From: Escherichia coli
Lineage (GTDB): Bacteria > Pseudomonadota > Gammaproteobacteria > Enterobacterales > Enterobacteriaceae
Direction: 5' to 3' (one strand)
Length of the DNA: 64,000 bases
Assembly: GCF_024223415.1 (NCBI RefSeq)
Contig: NZ_CP100503.1
Part shown: positions 19,456 to 42,913 of the stretch, piece after piece
Layout of the letters: the number at the start of each line of letters is the position of its first letter
Numbering within the stretch: the stretch's first letter is position 1
Program-made: the position numbers and the translations under genes
Notes under the pieces: model-generated
Seen by the model: only the letters and a program-made list of their open reading frames with translations
The model's database searches: none
What the model was told of the DNA's origin: nothing

Positions 19456-20649
19456 GTGACCTGGGACGATCACAAGAAGAATTTTGCTCGCCTGGCGCGA
19501 GATGGTGGTTACACCATCGCACAGTATGCCGCCGAGTTTAATCTTAACCCTAATACTGCACGTCGTTATCTCCGTGCCTTCAAAGAAGACACCAGGACAG
19601 CGGACAGCCGCAAGCCAAATAAGCCAGTCAGGAAGCCACTAAAAAGCATGATCATTGATCACTCTAATGATCAACATGCAGGTGATCACATTGCGGCTGA
19701 AATAGCGGAAAAACAAAGGGTTAATGCCGTTGTCAGTGCCGCAGTCGAGAACGCGAAGCGCCAGAATAAGCGCATAAATGATCGTTCTGATGATCATGAC
19801 GTGATCACCCGCGCCCACCGGACCTTACGTGATCGCCTGGAACGCGACACCCTGGATGATGATGGTGAACGCTTTGAATTCGAAGCTGGCGATTACCTGA
19901 TAGATAACGTTGAAGCGCGGAAGGCCGCTCGCGCTATGTTGCGTCGGTCCGGGGCTGATGTTCTGGAAACCACTCTTCTGGAAAAGTCTCTCTCTCATCT
20001 CCTTATGCTGGAGAACGCCAGGGATACGTGTATTCGCCTGGTGCAGGAAATGCGCGATCAGCAAAAAGACGATGATGAAGGGACTCCGCCTGAATATCGT
20101 ATCGCGAGCATGCTAAACAGCTGTTCCGCGCAGATAAGCAGCCTGATCAACACCATTTACAGCATCCGGAATAACTATCGAAAAGAAAGCCGGGAGGCGG
20201 AAAAGCACGCTTTATCTATGGGGCAAGCTGGCATTGTTAAGCTGGCATACGAACGAAAGCGTGAAAATAACTGGTCAGTGCTGGAAGCAGCTGAATTCAT
20301 CGAGGCGCATGGCGGAAAAGTGCCGCCCCTGATGCTGGAGCAAATCAAAGCCGATCTGCGTGCTCCTAAGACCAATACCGATGATGAGGAAAACCAAACA
20401 GCATCTGGCGCTCCATCACTTGAAGATCTGGATAAAATCGCGCGAGAACGGGCCGCCAGCCGCCGCGCTGATGCCGCATTGTGGATTGAGCATCGTAGAG
20501 AAGAAATTGCCGATATCGTCGATACAGGTGGTTATGGTGATGTCGATGCGGAAGGCATATCAAACGAAGCATGGCTTGAACAGGATCTGGACGAAGACGA
20601 GGAGGAAGACGAAGAAGTTACCCGCAAACTGTACGGGGATGATGATTAA
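19456..20649 (+). CDS. pacA: Terminase (pacase) subunit PacA, 397 aa, GTG start
   Basis: Contains the pac site internally. It has the acidic C-terminus (DEDEEEDEE) and ATGA-type overlap with pacB. Length and organisation are as in P1. Confidence 0.9.
19649..19807 (+). other. pac: pac packaging site: 4 + 3 TGATCA/G hexamers
   Basis: TGATCA occurs at 19649, 19656, 19668 and 19683. TGATCG occurs at 19779, and TGATCA at 19791 and 19802. This is the Dam-methylatable 4+3 arrangement described for P1 pac. Confidence 0.9.
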
Positions 20650-22133
20650 TGGCCAGAAGTTGCGTAACGGACCCACGTTGGCGCGAGCTTGTGGCGCTAT
20701 ATCGTTATGACTGGATTGCGGCCGCTGATGTGTTGTTTGGGAAGACACCAACCTGGCAGCAGGATGAGATCATTGAGTCCACGCAGCAGGACGGCAGTTG
20801 GACAAGTGTGACCTCCGGCCATGGTACTGGTAAGTCGGATATGACGAGTATCATTGCAATACTCTTCATCATGTTTTTCCCCGGCGCTCGCGTTATTCTG
20901 GTCGCTAACAAAAGACAGCAAGTCCTTGATGGTATTTTCAAATACATAAAGAGCAATTGGGCTACTGCTGTTAGCAGATTCCCGTGGTTGTCGAAGTATT
21001 TCATTCTTACAGAAACGTCTTTTTTTGAGGTGACTGGCAAGGGTGTTTGGACAATATTGATAAAGTCCTGTCGCCCCGGGAATGAGGAGGCGTTGGCTGG
21101 TGAACACGCCGATCATCTCTTGTATATCATCGACGAAGCGTCGGGTGTGAGTGATAAAGCATTCAGTGTGATAACAGGTGCGCTGACCGGTAAGGATAAC
21201 CGTATTCTGCTTCTTTCCCAGCCTACGCGACCTTCAGGCTATTTCTACGATTCACACCACAGACTAGCTATTCGCCCGGGAAATCCTGATGGATTGTTTA
21301 CTGCGATAATACTGAATAGTGAAGAATCTCCGCTTGTAGATGCAAAATTTATACGAGCAAAACTTGCGGAGTATGGCGGTCGTGATAACCCCATGTACAT
21401 GATCAAAGTACGTGGTGAATTTCCCAAATCTCAAGATGGCTTTCTTCTTGGTCGTGATGAGGTTGAGCGGGCGACGCGGCGAAAGGTCAAGATTGCCAAA
21501 GGATGGGGCTGGGTTGCATGTGTTGACGTTGCTGGTGGCACAGGACGAGATAAGTCCGTTATTAATATCATGATGGTGTCCGGCCAGCGAAATAAACGCC
21601 GTGTAATCAACTATCGTATGCTGGAATACACAGACGTTACAGAAACGCAGTTAGCCGCCAAGATTTTCGCAGAATGTAACCCAGAACGGTTCCCGAACAT
21701 AACCATAGCTATTGATGGCGATGGCTTGGGGAAATCGACGGCTGATCTAATGTACGAACGCTATGGCATTACCGTCCAGCGTATCCGCTGGGGTAAAAAG
21801 ATGCACAGCCGTGAAGATAAGAGCCTGTACTTTGATAAGCGTGCTTATGCCAACGTTCAAGCCGCAGAGGCCGTAAAATCTGGTCGTATGAGACTGGATA
21901 AGGGTAATGAAACTATTGAGGAAGCGTCGAAAATCCCTGTAGGGATTAACTCCGCAGGTCAATGGAAGGTGATGAGTAAGGAGGATATGAAGAAAAAACT
22001 CAACCTGCACTCACCAGACCATTGGGATACATATTGTTTCGCTATGCTGGCTGATTATGTTCCCCAGGATGAAGTGCTTAGCGTCGAAGACGAAGCGCAG
22101 GTTGATGAAGCTCTTGCATGGCTTAACGAATAA
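20649..22133 (+). CDS. pacB: Terminase large subunit PacB, 494 aa
   Basis: Walker A-like SGHGTGKS and Walker B-like [10 protein letters not shown] are present. Position is as in P1. Confidence 0.9.
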
Positions 22134-22136
22134 ATA

Positions 22137-22153
22137 TTTGCTCTAATAAATTG
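22137..22153 (+). promoter_or_regulatory. C1 operator at the head of immI-like module a
   Basis: tttgctctaataaattg, 15/17. It starts 4 nt after the pacB stop. Confidence 0.65.
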
Positions 22154-22334
22154 TGTTTTTTGACTGCCGATGTTACATTGAACCTGACCTCTTGCGCCTT
22201 GAGGCTTTTTCGGTTTATGCTTATCAGGCACCTCATTAAAACGGGTGCCGGGATTGGCCTCCCGCTTAAGTCTAAGGCGATACAGACGCCGCTCGCGTCT
22301 TTTTTGTATCGGCGTACACGCACACCTCTACAAT

Positions 22335-22410
22335 GGTGGGCTGTATGGGGCTACCTTCGGGTAGGCTGGTTACCTTGGACGCCAGTAAGGCCAACTCCGT
22401 ACAGTCCACC
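22335..22410 (+). ncRNA. c4: c4-type antisense repressor RNA, specificity variant a (76 nt)
   Basis: ggtgggctgtatggggctaccttcgggtaggctggttaccttggacgccagtaaggccaactccgtacagtccacc has the same scaffold as the two other c4 copies (GGUGGG...CCACC closing stem, UUCG hairpin). The loop sequences are complementary to flanking sites at 22254, 22271, 22421 and 22453. Confidence 0.7.
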
Positions 22411-22470
22411 GCCAGCAAGATTGGTCTCTTCTGCGGTGGTTACATACCAACGTCTAAGGAGGCTGCCAAT

Positions 22471-22692
22471 ATGGCTACTATCCCTACCCCAACTCATCCT
22501 GAATTTATCTGGCGCTTTTACTCCTGCCAAAAACGTCACTATCACTTCGTTATTGCACCAACAGAAGATGAGGCCCGCTCTCAGCTTCCTGACGCCCCAT
22601 GTATTTTCTCTGCCCGTTTTTCCACTGATTCACGCAATTCTCTCAGTTACTGGTGCCTCCCTGTTAACGCTTCTGCTCAGGAGGGACTATGA
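22471..22692 (+). CDS. icd: Icd-like protein, 73 aa, variant N-terminus
   Basis: MATIPTPTHPEFIWRFYSCQKRHYHFVIAPTEDEARSQLPDAPCIFSARFSTDSRNSLSYWCLPVNASAQEGL. The length is the same and the stop overlaps the ant start (ATGA), as for P1 icd-ant. Confidence 0.8.
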   Translation: MATIPTPTHPEFIWRFYSCQKRHYHFVIAPTEDEARSQLPDAPCIFSARFSTDSRNSLSYWCLPVNASAQEGL

Positions 22693-23804
22693 GAACGTCA
22701 TTAGTCACCCGTGAAGAGATGATCGAGGCAATTGAACAGCACACTGCCTGTATCAGTACCAGGGATATACCGGGCGTTATTGCCAACTACTTCATGATCA
22801 CCAAACAACTTTACCGGAGAAAGGACAAGAACGCGGTTCACCGCATTCTGCTAACCGATATCCGCGAATACCTGCTCGAACAGGGTCATCTGAATTACGC
22901 AACCGTCGCAGCCGAAACACGCAAGGAGGCACACAGAATGAAAGCAACTAACGTTAAATCAGAAAAAATTCATGCAACTTCAGTTCAGGAATCAGAGCTG
23001 GTGGTTGTTCAGAATCAGTCTGATGAAATTCCCGTTCTGGAATGGCTGGGAGTGCGTGTAGTGACAACCAAGATCCTTGCTAAGGGGTATGGGACCGATG
23101 CGGATAACATCAAGAAGAACTTTTCCCGTAATGCTGAACGTTTTTGTGAAGGCAAGCATTTCTATAAAGTTATTGGAGATGATTTGAACAATTTGCGGGT
23201 GACTTTAAGTAACTCACAAAATCCCATCTCTCCTAAAGCCCGTTCACTCATCCTCTGGACAGAACGCGGCGCTGCCCGTCACGCTAAAATGCTCGAAACC
23301 GATCAGGCATGGGCATTCTTTGAAAAACTGGAAGACAGCTACTTCCGGCAAAAAGAACAGCAACCGGTTGCAATCCCCCAAACATTACCAGAAGCCCTAC
23401 GCCTGGCTGCCGAACTGGCTGAACAAAAGCAGCTTCTGGAACAGAAAGCCCACCAGCTAAATCAGCAGCTGGTGGCCGCCGCTCCTAAGGTCGATTTTGC
23501 CGACCGGGTATCAGTAGCTAAAGGGATCCTGATTGGGAATTTTGCAAAGGTTGTTGGACTTAAGCAAAACGCGCTGTTTGCCTGGTTACGGGAGAACGGC
23601 ATCCTGATAGCGTCCGGTGGACGTAAAAATGTGCCGTTCCAGCAGTACATCAACGCGGGGTATTTCACGGTGAAAGAAGTGGTGCTGGATGATGAAGATG
23701 GCTACCAGATACGGTTGACGCCTCAATTAACGGGTAAAGGCCAGCAGTGGTTGACGCGTAAACTGCTCGATGCTGGCTTGTTAAAACCGGTGGCGGCTGA
23801 ATAA
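22689..23804 (+). CDS. ant: Antirepressor Ant, copy a (N-domain + ORF6N/Bro-like middle + KilAC/ANT C-domain), 371 aa
   Basis: The C-terminal ~130 aa (APKVDFADRVSVAKGILIGNFAKVVGLKQNALFAWLRENGIL...TGKGQQWLTRKLLDAGLL) is the phage antirepressor KilAC domain. It follows icd as in P1 immI. Confidence 0.8.
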   Translation: MRTSLVTREEMIEAIEQHTACISTRDIPGVIANYFMITKQLYRRKDKNAVHRILLTDIREYLLEQGHLNYATVAAETRKEAHRMKATNVKSEKIHATSVQESELVVVQNQSDEIPVLEWLGVRVVTTKILAKGYGTDADNIKKNFSRNAERFCEGKHFYKVIGDDLNNLRVTLSNSQNPISPKARSLILWTERGAARHAKMLETDQAWAFFEKLEDSYFRQKEQQPVAIPQTLPEALRLAAELAEQKQLLEQKAHQLNQQLVAAAPKVDFADRVSVAKGILIGNFAKVVGLKQNALFAWLRENGILIASGGRKNVPFQQYINAGYFTVKEVVLDDEDGYQIRLTPQLTGKGQQWLTRKLLDAGLLKPVAAE

Positions 23805-23811: not shown

Positions 23812-23833
23812 ATGCCCGGTTGATGCCGGGCAT
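23812..23833. terminator. Hairpin between convergent ant(a) and c1
   Basis: atgcccgg-ttgatg-ccgggcat is a perfect 8-bp stem. The T-run is weak. Confidence 0.45.
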
Positions 23834-23836
23834 AAT

Positions 23837-24688
23837 TTATTGCGCGCTTTCGGGGTTGTCGTTTACTGGCTGCCCCTTCTTGGTTTTACGGCTGCGCGTA
23901 ACTGATGCGGCTGACTTAACCTTTTTCTCTTCGCGAGTGATGGCAATTTGTTTTTTTACATTTTCAATATCTGCCAGGCGATATATTTTTGCTTGCGGCC
24001 AGCGGTCGCAGATGATCGGTTCTATGGAGTCATAAAGGCTAAATTTTGCTTTTTCGAATTCACCGTTGATGATAATTCCATCACGGAGAGTTTCATCGCA
24101 GATAAACACGCCACACAGTGGCACATGGTAACTCACTGATTTACCGTTATTGTAGTTAGGACTACTGGAGATGTAGTGAACGCGCAGCATTGTTTCGCTA
24201 AAGCCGTGTACGCGCATACGGAATTTTTCATCCTCCGGGTACTGCTTCATTAGCTCTTTTGTTGCTTCCAGGTTCTCTATGTATTTCGCACTGTGCTCAT
24301 TGAACCCCGCGCTTTTTTGGATGCGAATGTCCTTATCAATCAGATGAATAATGCGGCCAGCGGTCATGTTGACGCTGTTTACAGCTTCTGTCTGATAGGT
24401 CGTAACCTTACGCACACCGCGAAGGATGTTAGGCACAGGATATAAAATAGTCTTTGGGATATTGAGGTCTGGGTACTGTTCCAGTTCCCGCGCCATTAAA
24501 GTCCATTTATCAATTTCAGCCTGAATGCTGTCAGTTTCTTTGAACGGTAGAACGACAACCGGGCGTACAGGACGACCGTCGCTGGCTGTATCAACGTGTT
24601 GGGCGCGTGCAACAGCTTTTTTTAGAAAGAGATCCCTGAAGCTGACGAACTCCTGGTACAGTTGTTCGCCGTAGACATAATTTATCAT
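23837..24688 (-). CDS. c1: C1 master repressor of lysogeny, 283 aa
   Basis: MINYVYGEQLYQEFVSFRDLFLKKAVARAQHVDTASDGRPVRPVVVLPFKETD... matches P1 C1 from memory. The length of 283 aa also matches. Confidence 0.95.
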   Translation of the reverse strand: MINYVYGEQLYQEFVSFRDLFLKKAVARAQHVDTASDGRPVRPVVVLPFKETDSIQAEIDKWTLMARELEQYPDLNIPKTILYPVPNILRGVRKVTTYQTEAVNSVNMTAGRIIHLIDKDIRIQKSAGFNEHSAKYIENLEATKELMKQYPEDEKFRMRVHGFSETMLRVHYISSSPNYNNGKSVSYHVPLCGVFICDETLRDGIIINGEFEKAKFSLYDSIEPIICDRWPQAKIYRLADIENVKKQIAITREEKKVKSAASVTRSRKTKKGQPVNDNPESAQ

Positions 24689-25661: not shown

Positions 25662-25964
25662 ATGAAGATTATTTCGGTAAAAACATTGAGGGATTTTTGG
25701 TCTGTGAATCCCGATGCAGAACAACCATTAAAGGCCTGGGTTGACGAAGTCTCCAAGGCCACCTGGAAAAGCCCGGCTGATATCAAAGCGCAGTACCGAT
25801 CTGCCAGCATTCTTAAAAACAGGCGGGTTGTCTTCAACATCAAAGGTAATGACTACAGATTAATTGTTGCAATTGCTTATCAGCGAGGATGGATGTTCGT
25901 TAAGTTTATTGGAACACATAAGGAATACGATGCCATCGACGCGGATACAATAGAGCTGGAGTAA
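25662..25964 (+). CDS. higB: HigB-family type II toxin (RelE-fold mRNA interferase), 100 aa
   Basis: MKIISVKTLRDFW...ATWKSPADIKAQYRSASILKNRRVVFNIKGNDYRLIVAIAYQRGWMFVKFIGTHKEYDAID is the typical HigB_toxin pattern. It is followed 3 nt later by an HTH antitoxin, in the toxin-first order of hig loci. Confidence 0.8.
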   Translation: MKIISVKTLRDFWSVNPDAEQPLKAWVDEVSKATWKSPADIKAQYRSASILKNRRVVFNIKGNDYRLIVAIAYQRGWMFVKFIGTHKEYDAIDADTIELE

Positions 25965-25967
25965 ATC

Positions 25968-26327
25968 ATGAACATTAAACCTATCCGTACAGAACAAGAT
26001 TATCAGGCCGCACTACGCGCGGTCGAACCTATGTTCGATAACGAACCGGAAATGAACACCCCGGAAGGTGATTTCTTTGAGATAATGTGCCTGCTTATTG
26101 AAGAGTATGAAAAAAGACATTACCCAATTGAACCGCCTACACCCATTGAAGCGATTAAGTTCCGTATGGAACAGCAAGGGTTGACAGTGAAAGATCTGGA
26201 ACCGGCGATTGGTAAGTCGAACCGTGTTTACGAAGTTCTGAATGGAACGCGAAATTTAACGTTACCAATGATTAGGCGTTTGCACGTACAGTTTGGCATT
26301 CCTCTCGAAAGTCTGGTTGGTGTGTGA
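25968..26327 (+). CDS. higA: HigA-like antitoxin, XRE-type HTH at the C-terminus, 119 aa
   Basis: The C-terminal GLTVKDLEPAIGKSNRVYEVLNGTRNLTLPMIRRLHVQFGIP is an HTH. It is paired with higB. Confidence 0.75.
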   Translation: MNIKPIRTEQDYQAALRAVEPMFDNEPEMNTPEGDFFEIMCLLIEEYEKRHYPIEPPTPIEAIKFRMEQQGLTVKDLEPAIGKSNRVYEVLNGTRNLTLPMIRRLHVQFGIPLESLVGV

Positions 26328-29785: not shown

Positions 29786-30850
29786 TCATTCAGCCGCCAC
29801 AGGTTTTAACAAGCCAGCATCGAGCAGTTTACGCGTCAACCACTGCTGGCCTTTCCCCGTTAATTGGGGCGTCAGCCGTATCTGGTAGCCCTCTTCATCA
29901 TCCAGCACCACTTCTTTCACTGTGAAATATCCGGCGTTTATGTACTGCTGGAACGGTACATTTTTACGTCCACCGGACGCTATCAGGATGCCGTTCTCCC
30001 GTAACCAGGCAAACAGCGCGTTTTGCTTAAGTCCAACAACCTTTGCAAAATTCCCAATCAGGATTCCATTAGCCACTGATACCCGGTCGGCAAAATCGAC
30101 TTTAGGAGCGGCGGCCACCAGCTGCTGATTTAGCTGGTGGGCTTTCTGTTCCAGAAGTTGCTTTTGTTCAGCCAACTCGGCAGCCAGGCGGAGGGCTTCG
30201 GGGAGTGTCTGGGGGATCGCTGGAGAAGCAGCGCTAACCTGCTGCAACTCCTCCAGCTTGTCGATCAACGAACGGCGGACCGCTTTTGACTCGCGCGCGG
30301 CAACTCGCAGGGCTTGTTTGTAGGTCATGGTTATGACCTCAAAAGAGCGCCCAGCCCTTGTGCCATGGGATTTTACGAAAGTTTCGTAAAATTCCCCATC
30401 AAGTTCATCCTTAATTCTATTGAGAAAATCGTTATTGCGGATCTCATTTTCCCCACATAGCTTGCGCGCCTCATTGACCATCTTTAACAGTGTCTGGCTG
30501 TCGATTGTGTCGCCCGTACTGGGGATAACATCCATGGCTGGTAGTGGTGTGGATTCTATCAAAGGCTTTGTAACGACAACATCTGGTTTGCTTGCTTTCA
30601 TTCTGTGTGCCTCCTTGCGTGCTTCGGCGGTTACGGTTGCATAATCAAGACGACCCTGTTCGAGCAGGTATTCACGGATATCAGTTAGCAGAATGCGGTG
30701 AACCGCGTTCTTGTCCTTTCTCCGGTAAAGTTGTTTGGTGATCATGAAGTAGTTGGCTATAACACCAGGAATGTCCCTGGCGCTGATACAGATTGTGTGC
30801 TGTTCAATAGCCTCGATCATTTCTTCACGGGTAACTAATGACGTTCTCAT
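29786..30850 (-). CDS. ant: Antirepressor Ant, copy b (alternative middle domain), 354 aa
   Basis: The N-terminal 85 aa and C-terminal KilAC domain are about the same as copies a/c. The middle (IDSQTLLKMVNEARKLCGENEIRNNDFLNRIKDELDGEFYE...) is shared instead with copy d. Confidence 0.8.
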   Translation of the reverse strand: MRTSLVTREEMIEAIEQHTICISARDIPGVIANYFMITKQLYRRKDKNAVHRILLTDIREYLLEQGRLDYATVTAEARKEAHRMKASKPDVVVTKPLIESTPLPAMDVIPSTGDTIDSQTLLKMVNEARKLCGENEIRNNDFLNRIKDELDGEFYETFVKSHGTRAGRSFEVITMTYKQALRVAARESKAVRRSLIDKLEELQQVSAASPAIPQTLPEALRLAAELAEQKQLLEQKAHQLNQQLVAAAPKVDFADRVSVANGILIGNFAKVVGLKQNALFAWLRENGILIASGGRKNVPFQQYINAGYFTVKEVVLDDEEGYQIRLTPQLTGKGQQWLTRKLLDAGLLKPVAAE

Positions 30851-31068
30851 AGCCCCTCCTGAGCAGAAGCGTTAACAGGGAGGCACCAGTAACTGAGAGA
30901 GTTGCGCGAGTCAGTAGAAAAGCGTGCAGAGAAAATGCAGGGAGCGTCAGGAAGCTGAGAACGGGCCTCATCTTCTGTTGGTGCAATGACGAAGTGATAG
31001 TGACGTTTTTGACAAGAATAGAAGCGCCAGATAAATTCCGGGCGTGCGCAAGGATTGGCATTAACCAT
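30847..31068 (-). CDS. icd: Icd, 73 aa, copy b
   Basis: MVNANPCARPEFIWRFYSCQKRHYHFVIAPTEDEARSQLPDAPCIFSARFSTDSRNSLSYWCLPVNASAQEGL. ATGA overlap with ant(b). Confidence 0.85.
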   Translation of the reverse strand: MVNANPCARPEFIWRFYSCQKRHYHFVIAPTEDEARSQLPDAPCIFSARFSTDSRNSLSYWCLPVNASAQEGL

Positions 31069-31118
31069 AGTTACGGCCTCACAAGTTGAATTAACAACCT
31101 GCTACCCGCTGTCAAACA

Positions 31119-31195
31119 GGTGGCAGGACGTGACAGGGTTGACAGACTGGCACTTGTGAAACCAGCAGGCCGAAGCCTCCCCATCACGCCCCACC
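31119..31195 (-). ncRNA. c4: c4 antisense repressor RNA, specificity variant b (77 nt)
   Basis: Minus strand reads ggtggggcgtgatggggaggcttcggcctgctggtttcacaagtgccagtctgtcaaccctgtcacgtcctgccacc. The loops CUGUCAA and UCACAAGU are complementary to flanking TTGACAG and ACTTGTGA sites. The 77-nt size agrees with published c4. Confidence 0.8.
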
Positions 31196-31385
31196 ATAAT
31201 TCGGGCGTAACGCGGTTTTACGGACACAAAAATACCGCAATAACGGAGTGATGCGGTTGTCCGCACAAGTATTCAGGCTGTCAAACCCGGTCGCAGAATT
31301 TGCTACGACGCAGGAACTATAAGCCTGAACGACGGGAAGATCAATAGTCTGGCGTCCAATAGTAGTTTATTTGTTCCAATAAATC

Positions 31386-31402
31386 AAATTTATTAGAGCA
31401 AT
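31386..31402 (-). promoter_or_regulatory. C1 operator (Op51-like) heading immI module b
   Basis: Reverse complement is attgctctaataaattt, 17/17. Confidence 0.85.
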
Positions 31403-32751: not shown

Positions 32752-32768
32752 CATTGCTCTAATAAATT
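32752..32768 (+). promoter_or_regulatory. C1 operator (Op51-like) heading immI module c
   Basis: attgctctaataaattt, 17/17. Confidence 0.85.
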
Positions 32769-32959
32769 TGATTTTTTAGGGCAAATAAACTACCATTGCG
32801 CACTGCCCTATTGATCTCCTTACCGTTCAGGCTTATATTCATGCCGTCGTAGCAAATTCTGCGACCGGGTTTAGCAGCCTGAATACTTACGCGGACAACC
32901 GCAGATATCCGATATTGCGGTATTTTCATGTCCGTATAACCGCGTTACGCCCGAATTAT

Positions 32960-33036
32960 GGTGGGGCGTGATGGGGAGGCTTCGGCCTGCTGGTTTCGTA
33001 AGTGCCAGTCTGCTAACCCCGTCACGTCCTGCCACC
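32960..33036 (+). ncRNA. c4: c4 antisense repressor RNA, specificity variant c (77 nt)
   Basis: ggtggggcgtgatggggaggcttcggcctgctggtttcgtaagtgccagtctgctaaccccgtcacgtcctgccacc. The loops CUGCUAA and UCGUAAGU are complementary to flanking TTAGCAG and ACTTACGA. Confidence 0.8.
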
Positions 33037-33086
33037 TGTTTAGCAGCGGGTCGCAGGTTGTTTTATCAACTTACGAGGCCGTAACT

Positions 33087-33308
33087 ATGGTTAATGCCAA
33101 TCCTTGCGCACGCCCTGAATTTATCTGGCGCTTTTACTCCTGCCAAAAACGTCACTATCACTTCGTTATTGCACCAACAGAAGATGAGGCCCGCTCTCAG
33201 CTTCCTGACGCCCCATGTATTTTCTCTGCCCGCTTTTCCACTGATTCGCGCAACTCTCTCAGTTACTGGTGCCTCCCTGTTAACGCTTCTGCTCAGGAGG
33301 GACTATGA
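33087..33308 (+). CDS. icd: Icd, 73 aa, copy c
   Basis: Protein identical to copy b. The track ORF 32958..33308 is an upstream extension through c4. Confidence 0.85.
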   Translation: MVNANPCARPEFIWRFYSCQKRHYHFVIAPTEDEARSQLPDAPCIFSARFSTDSRNSLSYWCLPVNASAQEGL

Positions 33309-34417
33309 GAACATCGTTAGTTACCCGTGAAGAGATGATCGAGGCAATTGAACAGCACACTGCCTGTATCAGTACCAGGGATATACCGGGCGTTATTGCC
33401 AACTACTTCATGATCACCAAACAACTTTACCGGAGAAAGGACAAAAACGCGGTTCACCGCATTCTGCTAACCGATATCCGTGAATACCTGCTCGAACAGG
33501 GTCATCTGAATTACGCAACCGTCGCAGCCGAAGCACGCAAGGAGGCACACAGAATGAAAGCAACTAACGTTAAATCAGAAAAAATTTATGCACCTTCAGT
33601 TCAGGAATCGGAACTGGTGGTTGTTCAGAATCAGCCGGATGAAATTCCCGTTCTGGAATGGCAGGGAGTACGTGTCGTGACAACCGAAACTCTTGCTAGA
33701 GGGTATGGGACCGAAACTAATAACATCAAAGTTAACTATACGCGTAATGCTGATCGCTTTGAGGAAGGTAAACATTACTTTCTACTAACTGGTTCAAAAT
33801 TAAAAGAATTGAAGGACAAGGTTACTCAAAGTAACTTAGTCGCACCGCGAGCAAAGCACCTCACTCTCTGGACGGAACGCGGCGCAGCCCGCCACGCTAA
33901 AATGCTCGAAACCGATCAGGCATGGGCATTCTTTGAAAAACTGGAAGACAGCTACTTCCGACAAAAAGAACAGCAACCGATCGCAATCCCCCAGACGCTT
34001 CCTGAAGCTCTGCGCCTGGCTGCCGAACTGGCTGAACAAAAGCAACTTCTGGAACAGAAAGCCCACCAGCTAAATCAGCAGCTGGTGGCCGCAGCCCCTA
34101 AAGTCGAGTTTGCCGACCGGGTATCAGTGGCCAAGGGGATCCTGATTGGGAATTTTGCAAAGGTTGTTGGACTTAAGCAAAACGCGCTGTTTGCCTGGTT
34201 ACGGGAGAACGGCATCCTGATAGCGTCCGGTGGACGTAAAAATGTGCCGTTCCAGCAATACATCAACGCCGGGTATTTCACGGTGAAAGAAGTGGTGCTG
34301 GATGATGAAGATGGCTACCAGATACGGTTGACGCCCCAGCTAACTGGGAAAGGCCAGCAGTGGTTGACGCGTAAACTGCTCGATGCTGGCTTGTTAAAAC
34401 CGGTGGCGGCTGAATAA
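33305..34417 (+). CDS. ant: Antirepressor Ant, copy c (ORF6N/Bro-like middle), 370 aa
   Basis: Collinear with copy a. The middle domain reads VLEWQGVRVVTTETLARGYGTETNNIKVNYTRNADRFEEGKHYFLL. Confidence 0.8.
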   Translation: MRTSLVTREEMIEAIEQHTACISTRDIPGVIANYFMITKQLYRRKDKNAVHRILLTDIREYLLEQGHLNYATVAAEARKEAHRMKATNVKSEKIYAPSVQESELVVVQNQPDEIPVLEWQGVRVVTTETLARGYGTETNNIKVNYTRNADRFEEGKHYFLLTGSKLKELKDKVTQSNLVAPRAKHLTLWTERGAARHAKMLETDQAWAFFEKLEDSYFRQKEQQPIAIPQTLPEALRLAAELAEQKQLLEQKAHQLNQQLVAAAPKVEFADRVSVAKGILIGNFAKVVGLKQNALFAWLRENGILIASGGRKNVPFQQYINAGYFTVKEVVLDDEDGYQIRLTPQLTGKGQQWLTRKLLDAGLLKPVAAE

Positions 34418-35178: not shown

Positions 35179-38100
35179 TTATGCGTATTGTTGGATGACG
35201 GCCAGAACGTCCGCCACGTTGTGTTTTGTCTCGATAATCCACCAGTTACCCGGGAAATCGCTGTTCTTCGCCTTCGCTGGCAGCCAGCGAGCGCCGAATT
35301 TCGCCTTGATTGCGTCTTTCGCACGGAAAAGAACCCCTTTCATGCCTGAGGCTTCCTGAAGCCCAAATACCTCGCCAGCGGCGAATTTTGGTGCGTACAT
35401 CATCTTCAGGTCGGCGGTGGATACGCGATAATTCAGGCCAAGAGACTGAGCTATGCTGGTGGCATCACCCTGTATTGATGATAACTCTTCTTGTTTCTCG
35501 TTTCTGGCGGCAATCTCTTCCTCCGTGATGTTGCCAAGGGCCAGGTTTATCCGATCAGCGTCGGCCTGTTTCTCTTCATCGGTGCGCCCGGCAAGAACCG
35601 TGTTAATTCTCTGCAATATCTCCACATGATTCTTGCGCATGCTGAGCAATTCCGGCGTAACCTCGTTAAGATCCACCAGCCCAAGGATGGCAAGGTCGGA
35701 AAACATTGATACCAGGTTGTAGGTCATGCGATAGCTGAGTTGACCATAGGCTGATGGCAACTTCACCGCATCCATTTGATAGGCATCCATAAATTTAGAG
35801 CCGTCGTTTACGACATCCGCTATTGCAGGTGTGATTTTCCCTGTGGTGGCGGCCTCCCTGATTGCTGTTACCCACGATTGAGTCAGCGCGGCGACTGCAT
35901 GATTCAGATTGGCTTTCCGTTCTGCTGCGATGCGCGCGCTTGCTGCGTCCATTGCCTGCTTGATCTCGGCTTTATTGCTGTAAATGCCAATGGTGCCAAA
36001 CTGTGCTGTGGTGATCTCATAATCTGACGCCCGGAACTCATTGGTACCGAAAATGGCATTGGTGACTTCAAGTTCAGAATCCCCGTTACGAGTAGCCCCC
36101 TGGCTTGTTTTTTCCGGCATTCTGGCGATCGCATCCGCTATTTTCTCCTGAATTGCTTCAGGGGATAGCGTATCTCCGTATGACGCGATTACATCGCCAT
36201 AATTGGAGCCAAACAATTCAACCAGGAATGTTTCTGCCGAACGGATCTGGCGGTTATTCCCTTCCGACATCATACCAAGCACCCATTTTGCAATTGACGA
36301 CTTCAGCGCGCCGTCACGGCGATCCGGGTAAACCGCATGCTTCAGTGGGTCCGTATAGGTACCAACAAAATCAATGCTATAGCCTGACTCTGTAGTCTGA
36401 ACGCCGTATGAGTCAGTGATTTTGATCATGCCGCGCTGCTGGAAACGGTAGAAATCGTCACAGGAAATGATGTCGTTAATCCCGGCGATGGAGACGCCAC
36501 CACTGATTTTCTGCATAACAGCATCTTCATCGGGAGTTACATCCACCTGTTTATCCAGCGTCTTCACATCCCAGTTACCCGATTTGGTGCCTTTGAAGGT
36601 AAAGATGATCTCCACGTCTGCGCGCTGGCTGTCGAAGTCCAGCGACTTAATGCGAACGATATCACCGGCACAATCGTAGTATTGGCCTACACGCCATGAG
36701 CGATCGCCGATAACAAGGAACTCACTCGCATGGTTAACCAGGTCAGGATCAACATCCAGAATGCCTTTATTTATTGCATCCTCCACCAGCGGGCGCAGGC
36801 GTTTGATATCCGTCGCGGCCTTCTGAGTACGGTTCAATAATTTCTCATAGCGGGAGATGGCTTGAGAGATATTAGCCTTGCGCTGAATGGCGTTTTTCAA
36901 CGACGCGCGATACTGTGCTAACAACATACGGTCTGTGTGATGGACGCTCCCCCAGCGGGCCTTCCAGTCTGCGTTATCAGCTGCTTTGGCCATTACCGCC
37001 TGTTTGAATTTAGCTACCTCGGCGGTGGTCTTTTCAAGTTCCGCTTTGCTTCGCTCTAATTCAGCGGTAAGTACCTCCACATCCTCGCCAGCTGCGTGCT
37101 GCGCCTTGATGTAGTTCTGAAGGTCGATAGTAGCCTGTTCTTTCTGGCGAGCGCGTTGCGCGGCTTTCGCCTTATCCATTTGAACCTGCATCATTGCCAG
37201 ACGTTCGCCATCATCCTTAGCGGTATACATCTGCATTTCGATCATATCGTTGGCGTCGGCGTTCTCCATTTCAGACTTATCTGAGCGGAGGATATCGGAG
37301 ATCCAGCCTGCTTTACGCTTCAGCGTCTTCAGTCGGTATTCATCGAAAGAACCCTTGCCGCAGTAGTAGTGAACGCGAACGCTTGCACGGTTGGAACCAA
37401 CTCGGGCACCGCGACCGTTACGCTGTGCGATACTGGCTGGTGTCCATGGCAACGTCAGATGATGGATGTCAGTCGTTCCTCGATGCAGGTTGATACCCAC
37501 CTCTGCCTTTTTGTTGCAGATGATGATCGGAGTCCGGCCCTCCTGGAAGTCGGCAGCAATCTTTTCCAGCCCACCCAGCGACATTTCATTTTGCTGCGCG
37601 ATATAGGCGTCATACAGAGCCATTTGCTCGTTGTATTTCGCTATCTGTGCATCTGTTGGTTCATCCGGTAGCTCTTTCGGCGGTTTAACCGCTTTCAGTT
37701 TCTTACCGGTTTTACCTGCCTCGGCAACCGTCTGAGCATTCAGGATCCCCACCTTTGAAGGTTCAAGGTTAAGAGCATTGCAGATAATGCGCTTGAGCTT
37801 CTGGTGTTGCGTTTTTTCATCGGTGAAGATGATTTGCTTACCTTCCGGGAAAAACTCCTTCAGCGTGGCGATCAGCTTCGCGTATTTCGGCGTAACGGGG
37901 TGAGTTACGGTCTGTTCGTCAATGCCAAACCTGGCCAGGCGCTTATTCACTTCCTGCTCGAACGCTTCCGGAACCTGCAACTGAATAAACTCGCCCTTAT
38001 CTATCAGGGAGTATTGCGATTGCTGCGTGATCGAATCATCACTGTCGTCGTCTTCGCTGGTGGCTTGTTTAGGCAAACTGTCCGCCAGCTGCTGCACCGC

Positions 38101-40068
38101 ATCGGCGTACTCCGGCAGGAAACGATAGGTGATCCTGCGATAGTACAGGTCCATGTCAGTACATACGCGGTCCATATCCCTGATTATTGAGAAGATCGGA
38201 CGGGCTTTCTCGTGCTCAATCACGCCGTCTTCATTGACCGAGGTCGTTACGCCATTGTTGGCTTTGGCTGCCGCTTCCGCCTGCTGACGCAATTCTTCAT
38301 ACGCCGCCAGTTGTTCTTCCGTAAGTGGTGCATCCTGCTGGTGTTCGTCCAGTTCCGGGATCTCCACGGTATCCTTAACGTCTTCCGCCGTTTTAAGCGT
38401 TGTCCAGCGATGGAATATGCCGCGCAGCGCATCAAGGTTTTCAAAGCCCACCAGCGCCATTTTTTCTTCAACTTCACCGCTAATTTTCTGTACCGTTTCC
38501 AGCCTGGTCTTGCCGAAGAATTTAACGAAGTCATCAGGACCGTAGATCCCCATCTTCTGCCAGTATTCCTTCGGCAGCACATGAGAAAGCATGTTGTATG
38601 CATCGATCGGGGTGTTAACGACTGGCGTTGCAGTCAGGAGAACCGGTCCGCGCCCACCATTCTTTTTCATCAGGTACGCGTTTTTAATTGCCATATCCCG
38701 CGCCGATTGCGCCACCGCGCTGGTGGGCAGATAGGCCAGTTGTGACGCTTCGCGACCATTTTTATAGCTATTGCGGTAGTTGTGACCTTCGTCAGCGATC
38801 ACACTATCGAAGCCCATATCCTCAAAGTACGGATACTTCTCTGCTTTTTCGGTGCCGGTATCTGAATACTCCGACAATACCCGGCGACGCGCGGCCTCTT
38901 TGCGGTGGGAGTCGGAGTCCATTGCGCTGGCTACGCGCCCGGCGGCAACGAAGTCATAAAGCATATCCTGTGCATGCTCATCTACGGTGTCATCACGTAG
39001 CGGAATGCGGGCGTATTGTTCTTTGGTAAACACGACTGCACGGTAATTTGAGTGCGGGATCGCGTTCATCCGCGCCGTGATAGTGGCTTCATCTGCCAGC
39101 TTAAGAGCATCGCGCATAACTGGAGTGCCATCAGTACCAAGAACAGGTTTACCGTTCTCATTGAGCACCGGCACCTGGCGAATCTGATCGCCATCCATCA
39201 GCACATCAAGACCGACGAACAGGTAGTTACTGAATGCCTCTTCACTCAGGAACTCTTTTGCTTCGTAATACCAGTTTTCCAGCACTGATTTAGGCACTAC
39301 ATACGCAGTACGGGTGGAACGACCGTTCTCATAGTTGAACGCCTCAAGCGCCAGCGCGGTCGTGGTTTTACCCAGCCCGGTACCGAAGCCCAGGATGCCG
39401 CGCCCATCTTCGGACAGTCGGCGCACCTCGCTATTCTGGTAATCAAATGGCTGTCGCTTACCGCTTAATCCCTTCAACCCAAGCGGATCGCCAGAGTGTT
39501 CATACGGGATATTGCTATTGAACACATCGTTGTATTTGGCAACCAGCTCATCGTAGCGATCGTGCGTCTTGATCCACTTATTGAACTGGTCCTCAAGCAG
39601 TGCCATCTGCTCGCGGTAGCCGTTCGCCGTCGCGCTATCTTTGCCACCGATACGCGCACCATTGAGATACTTTTCCAGCTGTGCCGGGAACCCGGTCGCG
39701 TTTTCACCTGATTTACGGTCCCACTCGTAGCGGATCTCGCCTGTTTCTTTATCCTTGCGCTGGACGACACCGTATCGGTGCCCGACGAACAGACCATCAC
39801 CACCGTGATAGGTGTCAGAAACCATTTCGTCGCCTTCCAGCTGCACTGACTGCACATAGCGAAGATCCGGATAGCCGTTTTCCTGCAAAAATTCCAGAAT
39901 GACGGAACGGTCGAACCAACGGCTATTGAGCTTAAAGCGGATATTCTCTGCTGGCGTCTTGATGCGCTTCTCTTCGATCGCTGCCAGCTGATTAAGGACG
40001 TTGTTCTTTACCCAGTGCGCCGTAAAGCCCCGTCCTTCAGGTCGGGGATATAAGGCGCGGTTTTCCAC
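35179..40068 (-). CDS. darB: DarB-like giant SF2 helicase, N-terminally truncated by IS copy 1 (native sequence ends at 40011; first 19 codons come from the IS left end)
   Basis: Helicase motifs GFGTGLGKTTTAL, VIADEGHNYRN, LLTATPVVNTP and QRNGRGARVG are present. The reading frame enters the IS at TTAC (40008-40011). No methyltransferase domain is present upstream. Confidence 0.7.
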   Translation of the reverse strand: MENRALYPRPEGRGFTAHWVKNNVLNQLAAIEEKRIKTPAENIRFKLNSRWFDRSVILEFLQENGYPDLRYVQSVQLEGDEMVSDTYHGGDGLFVGHRYGVVQRKDKETGEIRYEWDRKSGENATGFPAQLEKYLNGARIGGKDSATANGYREQMALLEDQFNKWIKTHDRYDELVAKYNDVFNSNIPYEHSGDPLGLKGLSGKRQPFDYQNSEVRRLSEDGRGILGFGTGLGKTTTALALEAFNYENGRSTRTAYVVPKSVLENWYYEAKEFLSEEAFSNYLFVGLDVLMDGDQIRQVPVLNENGKPVLGTDGTPVMRDALKLADEATITARMNAIPHSNYRAVVFTKEQYARIPLRDDTVDEHAQDMLYDFVAAGRVASAMDSDSHRKEAARRRVLSEYSDTGTEKAEKYPYFEDMGFDSVIADEGHNYRNSYKNGREASQLAYLPTSAVAQSARDMAIKNAYLMKKNGGRGPVLLTATPVVNTPIDAYNMLSHVLPKEYWQKMGIYGPDDFVKFFGKTRLETVQKISGEVEEKMALVGFENLDALRGIFHRWTTLKTAEDVKDTVEIPELDEHQQDAPLTEEQLAAYEELRQQAEAAAKANNGVTTSVNEDGVIEHEKARPIFSIIRDMDRVCTDMDLYYRRITYRFLPEYADAVQQLADSLPKQATSEDDDSDDSITQQSQYSLIDKGEFIQLQVPEAFEQEVNKRLARFGIDEQTVTHPVTPKYAKLIATLKEFFPEGKQIIFTDEKTQHQKLKRIICNALNLEPSKVGILNAQTVAEAGKTGKKLKAVKPPKELPDEPTDAQIAKYNEQMALYDAYIAQQNEMSLGGLEKIAADFQEGRTPIIICNKKAEVGINLHRGTTDIHHLTLPWTPASIAQRNGRGARVGSNRASVRVHYYCGKGSFDEYRLKTLKRKAGWISDILRSDKSEMENADANDMIEMQMYTAKDDGERLAMMQVQMDKAKAAQRARQKEQATIDLQNYIKAQHAAGEDVEVLTAELERSKAELEKTTAEVAKFKQAVMAKAADNADWKARWGSVHHTDRMLLAQYRASLKNAIQRKANISQAISRYEKLLNRTQKAATDIKRLRPLVEDAINKGILDVDPDLVNHASEFLVIGDRSWRVGQYYDCAGDIVRIKSLDFDSQRADVEIIFTFKGTKSGNWDVKTLDKQVDVTPDEDAVMQKISGGVSIAGINDIISCDDFYRFQQRGMIKITDSYGVQTTESGYSIDFVGTYTDPLKHAVYPDRRDGALKSSIAKWVLGMMSEGNNRQIRSAETFLVELFGSNYGDVIASYGDTLSPEAIQEKIADAIARMPEKTSQGATRNGDSELEVTNAIFGTNEFRASDYEITTAQFGTIGIYSNKAEIKQAMDAASARIAAERKANLNHAVAALTQSWVTAIREAATTGKITPAIADVVNDGSKFMDAYQMDAVKLPSAYGQLSYRMTYNLVSMFSDLAILGLVDLNEVTPELLSMRKNHVEILQRINTVLAGRTDEEKQADADRINLALGNITEEEIAARNEKQEELSSIQGDATSIAQSLGLNYRVSTADLKMMYAPKFAAGEVFGLQEASGMKGVLFRAKDAIKAKFGARWLPAKAKNSDFPGNWWIIETKHNVADVLAVIQQYA

Positions 40069-40485
40069 CTAACCAGGTGTTTGCTGTTGTTCAATGTATT
40101 GGCGGATGATGGATATTGGTGCGCCACCGCAGCTACTGGCAAAATAGCTGGGACTCCATAAAACGCCTTTGTAGTAATATCGGGCTGCAATATCTGGTCG
40201 ATCTCGTCGCAATAATCTACTCGATACGCCCTTGAGACTGTTCACCAGGCTGGATATCGCCAATTTGGGGGGATAGTTAATTAGCAGGTGAACGTGATCT
40301 CGTTCTCCATCCATTTCAACCAGTTCAGCTTCAAAATCAGCACATACACTTGAAAAGTAAGTGCGTAGTTTTTCTATTGCGTCATGGTCAAAAATCTGAC
40401 GTCGGTATTTTGCGACAAAGACCAGGTGAACGTGCATCAGGAAGACGCAGTGTCTTCCACGTCGGATATCAGTTTCTTTTTTTAT
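40069..40485 (-). CDS. tnpA: TnpA Y1 transposase, copy 1; canonical ATG replaced by ATA
   Basis: Same protein as copy 2 (KKETDIRRGRHCVFLMHVHLVFVAKYRR...SYFASSCGGAPISIIRQYIEQQQTPG), but nt 40483 is T where copy 2 has C. The copy-2 start codon is therefore ATA here. The track's 178-aa ORF uses an upstream ATG. Confidence 0.7.
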   Translation of the reverse strand: MKKETDIRRGRHCVFLMHVHLVFVAKYRRQIFDHDAIEKLRTYFSSVCADFEAELVEMDGERDHVHLLINYPPKLAISSLVNSLKGVSSRLLRRDRPDIAARYYYKGVLWSPSYFASSCGGAPISIIRQYIEQQQTPG

Positions 40486-40507
40486 GGACCAAAGTATAAT
40501 TTGGCTT

Positions 40508-41716
40508 ATGAAACGACTACAAGCTTTCAAATTCCAGTTAAGACCAAATGGACAGCAGGAGCGTGAAATGAGGCGCTTCGCGGGCGCATGTCGTTTCGTT
40601 TTCAATCGTGCTCTGGCGCTTCAGAATGAGAATCATGAGGCCGGGAACAAATATATTTCTTATGCAAAGATGACTTCCTGGCTGGTTGAATGGAAAAATG
40701 CTACTGAAACGCAATGGCTTAAAGATTCTCCCTCACAGCCATTGCAGCAGTCACTGAAAGACCTTGAGCGAGCCTACAAAAATTTCTTTCAGAAGCGTGC
40801 CTCTTTTCCCCGCTTCAAAAAGCGGGGACAGAATGATGCATTCCGCTATCCGCAGGGCGTTAAGCTCGACCAAGGGAACGGTCGTATTTTTCTGCCAAAA
40901 CTTGGCTGGATGCACTACCGGAACAGCCGTCAGGTCTCGGGGATTGTGAAAAACGTCACTGTCAGCCAGTCCTGCGGTAAGTGGTACATCAGTATTCAGA
41001 CAGAAAGTGAAGTATCAACTCCGGTTCACCCTTCAGCATCAATAGTCGGTCTGGATGCAGGCGTGGCTAAACTCGCCACGCTGTCAGATGGCACAGTCTT
41101 TGAGCCTGTAAACAGTTTTCAGAAAAACCAGAAGACGCTGGCGAGACTTCAGCGACAGTTAAGCCGCAAGGTCAAATTCAGCAACAACTGGCAGAAGCAG
41201 AAATGCAAAATACAGCGACTGCATTCCCGTATCGCAAATATCCGCAGGGACTACCTTCACAAAGTCACAACGACCGTCAGCAAAAACCACGCCATGATAG
41301 TCATTGAGGATTTGAAGGTCAGTAACATGTCAAAGTCAGCAGCGGGTACGGTCAGCCAGCCGGGGCGCAATGTCCGGGCAAAATCAGGTTTAAACCGTTC
41401 GATACTGGATCAGGGCTGGTATGAAATGCGCCGTCAGCTTGAGTACAAGCAGCTCTGGCGAGGCGGTCAGGTGCTTGCGGTTCCGCCAGCGTACACAAGC
41501 CAGCGTTGCGCGTGCTGTGGTCATACAGCGAAAGAAAACCGCCTGTCACAAAGTCAATTCAGATGCCAGGTATGTGGATATACAGCGAACGCCGATGTAA
41601 ACGGCGCTCGTAACATTTTAGCGGCGGGGCACGCCGTTCTTGCCTGTGGAGGGATGGTGCAGTCAGGCCGCCCGTTGAAGCAGGAACCCACCGAAATGAT
41701 TCAGGCGACAGCCTGA
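40508..41716 (+). CDS. tnpB: TnpB, copy 1
   Basis: [17 protein letters not shown]... with IVGLDAGV, the CACCGH..CQVCGY zinc finger and ADVNGARNI. The track start 40484 is probably 8 codons too early. Confidence 0.9.
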
Positions 41717-41797
41717 ACGTAGCAGGAATCCACGTCCTTCAGGGCGTGGAGGATGTCAATGGAGCCTCCCCTTCTCTGCCGACGTTCAGGGGGGTTT

Positions 41798-42835
41798 ATG
41801 AAAACACCTCTCGTCACCCGTAATGACATAGCCGAAGCGATCGCCCTGCATACTGCCTGTATGCCGACACGGGAGATCCCCGGCGCAATTGCCAACTATT
41901 TCATGATAACCAGACGTTTTTATACCCGAACAGATAAGGCTGTGATCAACAAGCTACTGATAGCCGAGATCAGGGATTATTTGATTGAACAAGGACGTCT
42001 ACGTTACGCAACAGTGGCAGCAGAAATGAGAAAGGAGGCACATAGAATGACCGGTAATAATTTAAATGTTGAAAAACCAGCACCTGTTGCTTCAGCTACG
42101 CCAGCACCAGCCGTGAATATCATCCCCAACACCGGAGACACAATCGACAGCCTGACACTGTTAAAGATGGTCAATGAAGCGCGTAAGTTATGTGGGGAAC
42201 CAGAGGTTCGGAACAACAAATTCATCGAAAAAATACTCGATGAGCTTGATGGTGAGCACTACACAAAAAGTGTAGTGGAAAAAATGAACAAAACATCAAT
42301 GCTTGTCATAACCATGACTTTCAAACAAGCCCTGCGAGTCGCCGCGCGCGAGTCAAAAGCGGTCCGCCGTTCGCTGATCGACAAACTGGAAGAATTACAG
42401 CAGGCAAACTCACCTACCCCATCGATCCCCCAGACATTACCAGAAGCCCTACGCCTGGCTGCCGAGTTGGCAGAACAGAAAATGCAGCTGGAACAACAGC
42501 TGGTGGCCGCAGCCCCTAAAGTCGATTTTGCCGACCGGGTATCAGTGGCCAATGGAATCCTGATCGGGAACTTTGCAAAGGTCGTTGGACTTAAGCAAAA
42601 CGCCCTTTTCTCATGGTTGCGCCAGAACGGCATTCTCATGGCTTTTGGTGCGCGCAAAAACGTACCGCGCCAACAGTACATCAACGCCGGGTATTTCACG
42701 GTGAAAGAAGTGGTGCTGGATGATGAAAATGGCTACCAGATACGGCTGACGCCCCAATTAACGGGTAAAGGCCAGCAGTGGTTAACTCGCAAGCTACTTG
42801 ATGCTGGTTTGTTAAAACCAGTAGCAATAGGTTAA
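41798..42835 (+). CDS. ant: Antirepressor Ant, copy d (native immI position upstream of kilA), 345 aa
   Basis: MKTPLVTRNDIAEAIALHTACMPTREIPGAIANYFMI... has the same three-part architecture, with the middle domain as in copy b. The upstream 38 nt resemble the 3' end of icd and abut the IS right end. Confidence 0.8.
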   Translation: MKTPLVTRNDIAEAIALHTACMPTREIPGAIANYFMITRRFYTRTDKAVINKLLIAEIRDYLIEQGRLRYATVAAEMRKEAHRMTGNNLNVEKPAPVASATPAPAVNIIPNTGDTIDSLTLLKMVNEARKLCGEPEVRNNKFIEKILDELDGEHYTKSVVEKMNKTSMLVITMTFKQALRVAARESKAVRRSLIDKLEELQQANSPTPSIPQTLPEALRLAAELAEQKMQLEQQLVAAAPKVDFADRVSVANGILIGNFAKVVGLKQNALFSWLRQNGILMAFGARKNVPRQQYINAGYFTVKEVVLDDENGYQIRLTPQLTGKGQQWLTRKLLDAGLLKPVAIG

Positions 42836-42848
42836 CAAAAGAAAAAAA

Positions 42849-42871: not shown

Positions 42872-42913
42872 CTGAGCAGATCGTCCAACCCGATCTGGAT
42901 CGAGCCAGAAAAA

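Follow-up and report, generated by a model that had tools for sequence, protein, structure and literature searches.

What is encoded by the 1.7-kb segment that separates pacB from c1 in a P1-like phage-plasmid of Escherichia coli, and what could it do there? The question is raised by a stretch of 64,000 nucleotides (nt) of contig NZ_CP100503.1, referred to below as the window, in which the gene order is pacA, pacB, the segment, c1 (on the minus strand), coi, a higBA pair and cre. In P1 only 24 nt lie between the stop codons of pacB and c1, so that the segment is absent there, as a preliminary description of the sequence had supposed; P7, SJ46 and phiW39 match the flanks only, with no cassette at the pacB-c1 junction. 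The segment was found to contain a C4-type antisense RNA, four target sites, icd (a cell-division inhibitor) and ant (an antirepressor). It is best read, with a probability of about 0.8, as an accessory, functional switch of the immI type.

Composition of the pacB-c1 cassette

All the sequence features listed in the preliminary description are present where it had placed them, and together they constitute a full immI-type c4-icd-ant module. According to the P1 annotation, the parts of immI in P1 and P7 follow each other in the order Oc4, a1, b1, c4, a2, b2, icd and ant1/ant2, which is also the order found in the cassette. The likeness to P1 extends to the Rfam family of the C4 RNA, the targets flanking this RNA, the 73-residue Icd, the ATGA coupling and the nested ant1/ant2 genes. 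The P1-type position of immI, between the sim genes and kilA-repL, is not the one occupied here and, because of its location between pacB and c1, the cassette is regarded as an immI-like paralogue and not as the immI locus proper. Its features are the following.

22137-22153, plus strand: operator-like 17-mer for the C1 repressor, TTTGCTCTAATAAATTG, with two mismatches, both terminal, to the P1 consensus ATTGCTCTAATAAATTT
22151-22179, plus strand: candidate promoter TTGTGT-17-TACATT, overlapping the operator; found by eye, by analogy with the position of P2c4/P51a in P1
22192-22221, plus strand: candidate promoter TTGCGC-18-TATGCT; found by eye, its -10 box aligning with TATATT in the heads of D6 and TL-2011c
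22228-22305, plus strand: isrK-type leader RNA (Rfam RF01394, 60.8 bits; gathering score 50)
22254-22260, plus strand: site a1, TTGGCCT, in the loop of leader hairpin 2
22270-22277, plus strand: site b1, GTCTAAGG, single-stranded in the leader fold
22284-22305, plus strand: intrinsic terminator hairpin and T-run of the leader (terminator scan and fold)
22329-22416, plus strand: C4 antisense RNA (Rfam RF01695, matched over its full length with 75.9 bits and E = 4.7e-13; gathering score 45)
22335-22410, plus strand: C4 core RNA of 76 nt (minimum folding energy (MFE) -40.1 kcal/mol, z = -4.3)
22373-22380, plus strand: b', CCUUGGAC, in the 10-nt loop of C4 hairpin 2
22388-22394, plus strand: a', AGGCCAA, in a single-stranded C4 junction
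22421-22427, plus strand: site a2, TTGGTCT, in the icd leader; pairs with a', with one G:U
22452-22459, plus strand: site b2, GTCTAAGG, in the icd leader; pairs with b', with one G:U, and overlaps the icd Shine-Dalgarno sequence
22456-22462, plus strand: icd Shine-Dalgarno sequence, AAGGAGG
22471-22692, plus strand: icd-like gene, 73 residues (MATIPTPTH...; NCBIfam NF033153 phage_ICD_like, 49.8 bits)
22689-23804, plus strand: ant1-like antirepressor gene, 371 residues, joined to icd by ATGA at 22689-22692
23812-23833: hairpin ATGCCCGGTTGATGCCGGGCAT separating ant from c1, which are convergent (scan for terminator-like sequences; 9 pairs, 6 of them G-C)

Both the MFE and the centroid folds of the C4 RNA give the architecture of the family, with a long closing stem, a UUCG-type hairpin 1, b' in the loop of hairpin 2 and a single-stranded a'. 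Among ten C4 variants, compensatory changes were found in 12 of the 22 consensus pairs; these were counted in the closing stem and hairpin 1 only, since a mixed alignment of P1-type and isrK-type sequences mis-aligns hairpin 2, which differs in length by 1 nt. The 3' tail of the RNA, ACC-GCCA, is invariant and resembles a tRNA acceptor end; as in P1, a C4 RNA of about 76-77 nt would probably be excised by RNase P from a longer precursor. The leader is isrK-like, not of the P1 kind: it matches the Rfam isrK model and not the clan-related model of the c4-a1b1 leader of P1 (RF03163). Its hairpins and terminator are present; its fold, taken alone, is not significant (z = -1.0).

The C4 loops, AGGCCAA and CCUUGGAC, are unrelated to those of P1 (CUGUCAA and CACUAAC) and unlike those of two further modules of the window, described below as B and C. 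As had been noticed before, sites that match them lie upstream and downstream of the RNA, as in P1. Both GTCTAAGG and GATTGGYCTC occur twice in the 64 kb, when the two strands are considered, and solely at the four sites that flank C4.

The Icd of the cassette shares 53 of 66 residues (80%) with that of P1 and, from about residue 10 onward, all residues with the Icd of modules B and C. The N-terminus, MATIPTPTH, is different, as the preliminary description had pointed out: the first eight or so codons are of the D6/lambdoid head type, and the remainder is of P1 type. In Pfam, the Ant protein matches ORF6N over residues 117-201 (66 bits) and ANT/KilAC (PF03374) over residues 259-360 (109.4 bits against a gathering score of 25.3). 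It is 55% identical to P1 Ant1, with the N- and C-terminal parts conserved, and its ORF6N part is 53% identical to AnrP of the Gifsy-1 prophage. An in-frame, ant2-like start (ATG 22938, Met84), with a Shine-Dalgarno sequence AAGGAGG at 22923-22929, occupies the same position as the annotated start of P1 ant2. Both open reading frames (ORFs) are intact, the ATGA coupling and the ant2 start are conserved, and by analogy the product would be expected to act against C1.

The operator-like 17-mer begins four nt past the pacB stop, as described earlier, and its core is intact; Op51/Oc4 is its counterpart in P1 immI. It is invariant among 29 unique homologous heads, the head being the 5' part of the cassette (22134-22490), and it is one of 15 operator-like sites of the window with at most three mismatches, where chance alone would give 0.2. 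Its sequence marks it as a putative C1-binding site. The candidate promoter that overlaps it is conserved in sequence across all homologues, and the second candidate would put the start of transcription near 22228, which is the 5' end of the match to the isrK model. The hairpin at 23812-23833, a likely terminator, belongs to the inserted DNA and is absent at the P1 junction.

In RefSeq/PGAP records an 'ash family protein' pseudogene ('incomplete, missing C-terminus') spans the isrK-like leader and C4 (22217-22447; 14081-14311 in the equivalent locus L004), and the RNAs themselves carry no annotation. The call is probably a protein-model match on RNA genes. There is a lesson for annotation here, as pipelines label these RNA genes as hypothetical or 'ash family' pseudo-coding sequences although Rfam detects them easily. 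An AUG at the 5' end of C4 (AAUGGUGGG, 22333) opens a frame of 119 codons that runs without a stop to 22692, in frame into icd, and resembles the 'orf45' that overlies C4 in Gifsy-1. It was rejected as a gene: it is open in only 15 of the 29 unique heads, those of the window's subfamily, and is probably incidental.

Allelic co-variation of the C4 loops and their targets

Evidence on function comes from 42 copies of the head at the pacB-c1 locus: that of the window, those of three phages and those of the IMG/VR loci L007-L045. The pacB end lies immediately upstream in all of them, and c1 lies downstream in most. Five combinations of the a and b sites were found, in 24, 10, 5, 2 and 1 copies, respectively. 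At site a, a constant TTG is followed by GCCT/GTCT, AGAC or GAAC; at site b, a constant AAGG is preceded by GTCT, GTCA or GCAA. The specificity is contained in these four variable nt after the constant UUG and four before the constant AAGG, which is where the pacB-c1 alleles differ. In every class a1 equals a2 and the complement of a', and b1 equals b2 and the complement of b', when G:U pairs are allowed. In the heads of the RCS47/JL22 subfamily, variation affects about half of the 24 columns that make up the sites (two a1 columns being counted among them), against about 5% of some 380 other columns. A matched change at three places, twice over, is hard to explain otherwise than by selection for RNA-RNA pairing, and the joint change of a1, a' and a2, and of b1, b' and b2, is considered strong evidence, at the sequence level, that the cassette is functional.

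Two further loci of the IMG/VR collection may be mentioned here. In L044 (IMGVR_UViG_2534681832_000017) a P1-type C4 combines the b' loop of P1, CACTAAC, with the a' of P7, CTGCTAA, which suggests that in the P1-type head, too, the two kinds of site are exchanged independently of each other. Locus L020 contains, at 1210-2800, two copies of the pacB end, operator and module, 1,566 nt apart and identical over about 800 nt; this apparent tandem duplication was set aside as a probable assembly artefact, with N at the junction.

Origin, distribution and related modules

The head of the cassette shows 40-58% identity to the heads of P1, P7, module B and module C. From about 22495 (icd codon 9 or so) to the end, the sequence is mostly 93-100% identical to module C, with the exception of the central domain of ant (about 23073-23250), where identity falls to 48-75%. 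From 22228 onward, the head (over 22228-22480) is about 79% identical at the nt level to the isrK+C4 units of Shiga toxin (Stx)-converting lambdoid phages, and what is specific to P1-like elements is confined to its first 90 nt or so (22137-22227), which include the C1 operator. The head is not a diverged P1 c4; by these matches it belongs to the isrK+C4 lineage of D6 immI, the Stx phages and Gifsy-1. The cassette as a whole, by the same comparisons, is a portable RNA head (leader, C4, targets, Shine-Dalgarno sequence and first codons) combined with a P1-type icd-ant body and a P1 operator.

The immI region of the plasmid prophage D6 has a head of the same lineage, with isrK (59.1 bits), C4 (76 bits) and an Icd starting with MATIPTPTH, followed by an antirepressor gene. 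It differs in the ant, which is of the Rha/Roi/KilA type, in the genomic context, in the upstream region and in the lack of the operator-bearing 90 nt (22137-22227). D6 also carries the JL22-type allele of the pacB-c1 locus (a = AGAC, b = GCAA). The Stx phages TL-2011c, P13374, VT2phi_272 and F039 share with the cassette the isrK+C4 head, including the Shine-Dalgarno sequence and the first codons, MATIP. Their heads have a specificity of their own (a = CTAC, b = AATC), with matching loops, and are fused directly to Rha-family regulator genes starting with MATIP, with no icd and no C1 operator. In TL-2011c an RNA of the sRNA-Xcc1 family (RF02221, 79.6 bits; L049 3523-3606) separates the Rha-like regulator behind the head from the next antirepressor gene.

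Gifsy-1 contains an isrK match of 79.3 bits followed by a C4 of 69 bits (orf45 / STnc1160 region), upstream of anrP. It resembles the cassette in the leader with a leaky terminator, the C4-family RNA and the ORF6N antirepressor with AUGA coupling; it differs in having no icd and no separate a2/b2 leader, and in being an integrated lambdoid prophage. In Gifsy-1, read-through of the terminator, processing to an RNA of about 80 nt and trans-activation by IsrK have been shown experimentally (Hershko-Shalev et al. 2016; PMC4825925). Hfq binding by IsrK and trans-activation of orf45-anrP have been shown only for this prophage (PMC4825925).

The insertion at pacB-c1 is already known. Phages RCS47, JL22 and vB_EcoM-673R5 carry the cassette at this junction, with 91-97% identity over at least 91% of the segment. 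When at least 80% coverage was required, it was found in 280 PLSDB plasmids and in 263 of 5,426 complete E. coli genomes; the uninterrupted P1-type junction was found in 308, so that the cassette is present in about 46% of the P1-like elements of E. coli whose junction could be scored. The insertions of RCS47, pTZ20_1P, JL22 and vB_EcoM-673R5 are alike in locus and cassette, RCS47 and JL22 having other a/b alleles; in the RCS47 copy (92.9% identity) only 'ant' is annotated. Venturini et al. 2019 (PMC6906374) mentioned, with RCS47, that 'ant' is inserted between pacB and c1. The RNA genes and targets of the insertion are neither annotated nor discussed in the accessible records and papers, and within the accessible literature its RNA content and specificity are without earlier analysis. 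The cassette is thus a common accessory module of published genomes and not a new kind of system, and the preliminary description, which had read its identity and specificity rightly, overstated its novelty. By all the sequence comparisons given above it is an unannotated member of the C4/immI family, with a D6/lambdoid head, a P1 body and allelic diversity at the population level.

At the curated thresholds of Rfam, pairs of C4 and c4-a1b1 were also detected near 31.1-31.3 kb (minus strand) and 32.8-33.0 kb (plus strand). They belong to two complete modules, each with operator, a1b1, C4, icd and ant, which are inverted relative to each other, flank mat and lie downstream of c8. Their coordinates are given here, together with the a and b sites of modules B and C, P1 and P7.

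29786-31402, minus strand: module B
31116-31201, minus strand: C4 RNA of module B (Rfam)
32753-34417, plus strand: module C
32954-33039, plus strand: C4 RNA of module C (Rfam)
Module B: site a TTGACAG (P1-type), site b ACTTGTG
Module C: site a TTAGCAG (P7-type), site b ACTTACG
P1: site a TTGACAG, site b GTTAGTG
P7: site a TTAGCAG, site b GATTGTG

The Icd proteins of modules B and C are identical, and the centre of Ant is of P1 type in B and of ORF6N type in C. In their C4 loops, a sites of the P1/P7 type are combined with b sites that are new. The two modules differ from each other by 2+2 nt, like the P1/P7 pair.

The preliminary description had proposed that the cassette (module A) and modules B and C form three mutually orthogonal antisense circuits. 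Loop-target duplex energies were predicted and summed over a2 and b2, the absolute values being inflated by the inclusion of stem flanks: cognate pairs gave -24 to -28 kcal/mol, and the C4 of module A on the B, C, P1 and P7 targets, as well as the reverse combinations, gave -7 to -10 kcal/mol, which is background level. P1 and P7 are heteroimmune, and for this pair values of -17 to -19 kcal/mol were obtained. Modules B and C, with -15 to -20 kcal/mol, are separated only to a P1/P7-like degree; B with P1-type targets, which share site a, gave about -21.5 kcal/mol, and the pacB-c1 alleles against one another -14 to -18 kcal/mol. The prediction makes it plausible that module A is cleanly orthogonal to B and C.

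The number of circuits also requires a qualification. In the plasmid TUM1886, the closest relative of the window (99.9% identity over the cassette), there is a fourth module, the canonical immI, with P1 specificity; the two elements differ in it and in the b' loop of module B, which is CGTAAGT in TUM1886 and CACAAGT in the window, so that the mat locus is polymorphic too. In the window the canonical ant1/2-kilA-repL region is present (41798-44675), and its immI is decapitated: c4, a1/b1, a2/b2, Op51 and icd, except for its last 13 codons or so, are replaced by an IS200/IS605 element.

40069-40605, minus strand: tnpA of the IS200/IS605 element (Y1 transposase ORF)
40484-41716, plus strand: tnpB of the IS200/IS605 element (TnpB/OrfB ORF)
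41760-41801: icd remnant of about 13 codons, adjoining the IS200/IS605 element
41798-42835: intact P1-type ant1/2 of the canonical immI

Translation from an in-frame ATG at 41753 might yield an Ant with an extended N-terminus, free of C4 control. The same element adjoins a 5'-truncated darB-like ORF (35179-40068, minus strand), and about 32 kb of TUM1886 are missing at this junction. The three intact C4 modules proposed earlier are present, and the count is complicated by the decapitated locus: as judged from the sequence, the window holds three intact C4 circuits and one decapitated ant.

The genes that flank the cassette are the following.

19456-20649: pacA
20649-22133: pacB, with its stop at 22133
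23837-24688, minus strand: c1, convergent with ant

Further on, a higB/higA-like toxin-antitoxin pair lies at 25662-26327, in the interval from coi to cre that in P1 is occupied by imcB, imcA and cra. A sok antitoxin RNA (Rfam RF01794, 91.4 bits) was detected at 44984-45158, just 3' of repL, and implies a type I toxin-antitoxin locus of the hok/sok type; we know of no such locus in P1 itself.

Proposed mechanism, alternatives and implications

The mechanism proposed for the cassette is modelled on that of P1 immI, as given by the GenBank annotation of P1; it was reportedly worked out by Citron and Schuster in 1990 and 1992 and by Heinrich et al. in 1995. By analogy, we infer transcription, processing and repression of the cassette, C1 binding and Ant activity. 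Rightward transcription would start just past pacB, probably under the control of the C1 operator, and the first product would be the isrK-like leader with a1 and b1, ending at a terminator whose leakiness is assumed from the homology with Gifsy-1. Read-through would give the C4 RNA and then the icd-ant mRNA. The a' and b' sequences of free C4 would pair with a2 and b2, covering the icd Shine-Dalgarno sequence and blocking the translation of icd; the synthesis of Ant1/Ant2 would be blocked too, because ant is coupled to icd via ATGA. When a cognate C4 is present, for example in a lysogen, the antirepressor would be off; when it is absent, Ant1/Ant2 would be made and the C1 repressor inactivated. 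The short leader, with a and b sequences identical to those of the mRNA, might titrate C4 and activate translation, as IsrK does in Gifsy-1.

Several observations weigh against such a switch. A sigma-70 consensus scan reported no promoter upstream of the RNAs, and the two candidates found by eye are weak. Of the four cognate duplexes of the window's allele, only a'-a1 is free of G:U pairs, one being present in each of a'-a2, b'-b1 and b'-b2, and the a'-a2 duplex amounts to only about -9 kcal/mol. The central domain of P1 Ant1 differs from the ORF6N centre of the Ant of the window, and binding of the latter to the resident C1 is putative. Moreover, the ant genes of several modules in one genome look redundant, so that a selective value of the ant of the cassette has to be presumed.

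A different emphasis is suggested by Gifsy-1, in that the cassette might chiefly be an activator switch, with a read-through transcript that is silent in cis and is opened in trans by the abundant short leader (22228-22305). Expression of icd-ant would then be turned on under stress, for example, and immunity would be a side effect. The leader does match isrK rather than c4-a1b1 and has its own terminator, the head is about 79% identical to lambdoid isrK/C4 units, the ORF6N part of Ant is 53% identical to AnrP, and the trans-activation of orf45-anrP by IsrK is experimental (PMC4825925). The cassette, unlike Gifsy-1, nevertheless has a separate a2/b2 and a genuine icd after C4, as in P1, and its a2/b2 sites co-vary with the C4 loops, as a trans-acting C4 repressor requires. 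This possibility is rated as rather unlikely as the chief function, while the activator and repressor modes are not mutually exclusive.

It is quite improbable that the cassette is a post-segregational or host-control device, in which Icd would be a toxic effector and C4 its RNA antidote, stabilising the plasmid prophage. An Icd-like protein is encoded, P1 Icd is annotated as an inhibitor of cell division, and the insertion is accessory and mobile-looking; phd/doc, higBA and a sok-like RNA have accumulated in the plasmid as well. Nothing, however, indicates a differential stability of the RNAs; ant is always retained and translationally coupled, the C1 operator and the adjacency to c1 tie the cassette to the control of lysis and lysogeny, and the P1 annotation describes icd as needed for ant expression. 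Least probable of all, to the point of being hardly credible, is a functionless relic, a duplicated piece of immI hitch-hiking in P1-like plasmids. The 93-100% identity of the body with module C, from about 22495 and outside the central part of ant, does point to recent intragenomic recombination, and the ant paralogues look redundant; yet all the ORFs are intact, the cassette is retained in hundreds of replicons, and three-way changes of the a and b sites, as seen in the five alleles, could not come about in the absence of selection for pairing, by which this explanation is already disfavoured.

If the cassette works as an immI-type switch, immunity of P1-like elements would be a variable set of RNA specificities and not a matter of one c4 locus, as in the textbook case of P1/P7. 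We tentatively extend this to a wider picture, which is open to considerable doubt, in which up to four C4-icd-ant paralogues (at immI, the flanks of mat and pacB-c1) would carry combinatorially shuffled RNA barcodes of 4 + 4 nt, each matched at three places. The pacB-c1 junction would then be a polymorphic immunity and anti-immunity locus in an RNA arms race, occupied in about half of the E. coli P1-like elements and with at least five alleles. An extra C4 would block one class of incoming antirepressor, and an extra ant cassette would let a phage escape from lysogens that lack the matching C4. The natural alleles also constitute a ready set of short, probably orthogonal, two-site antisense regulators. 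P1-like phage-plasmids often carry resistance genes in E. coli and, if the cassette works as proposed, the set of specificities held by each element would decide which of them co-exist, exclude one another or are induced.

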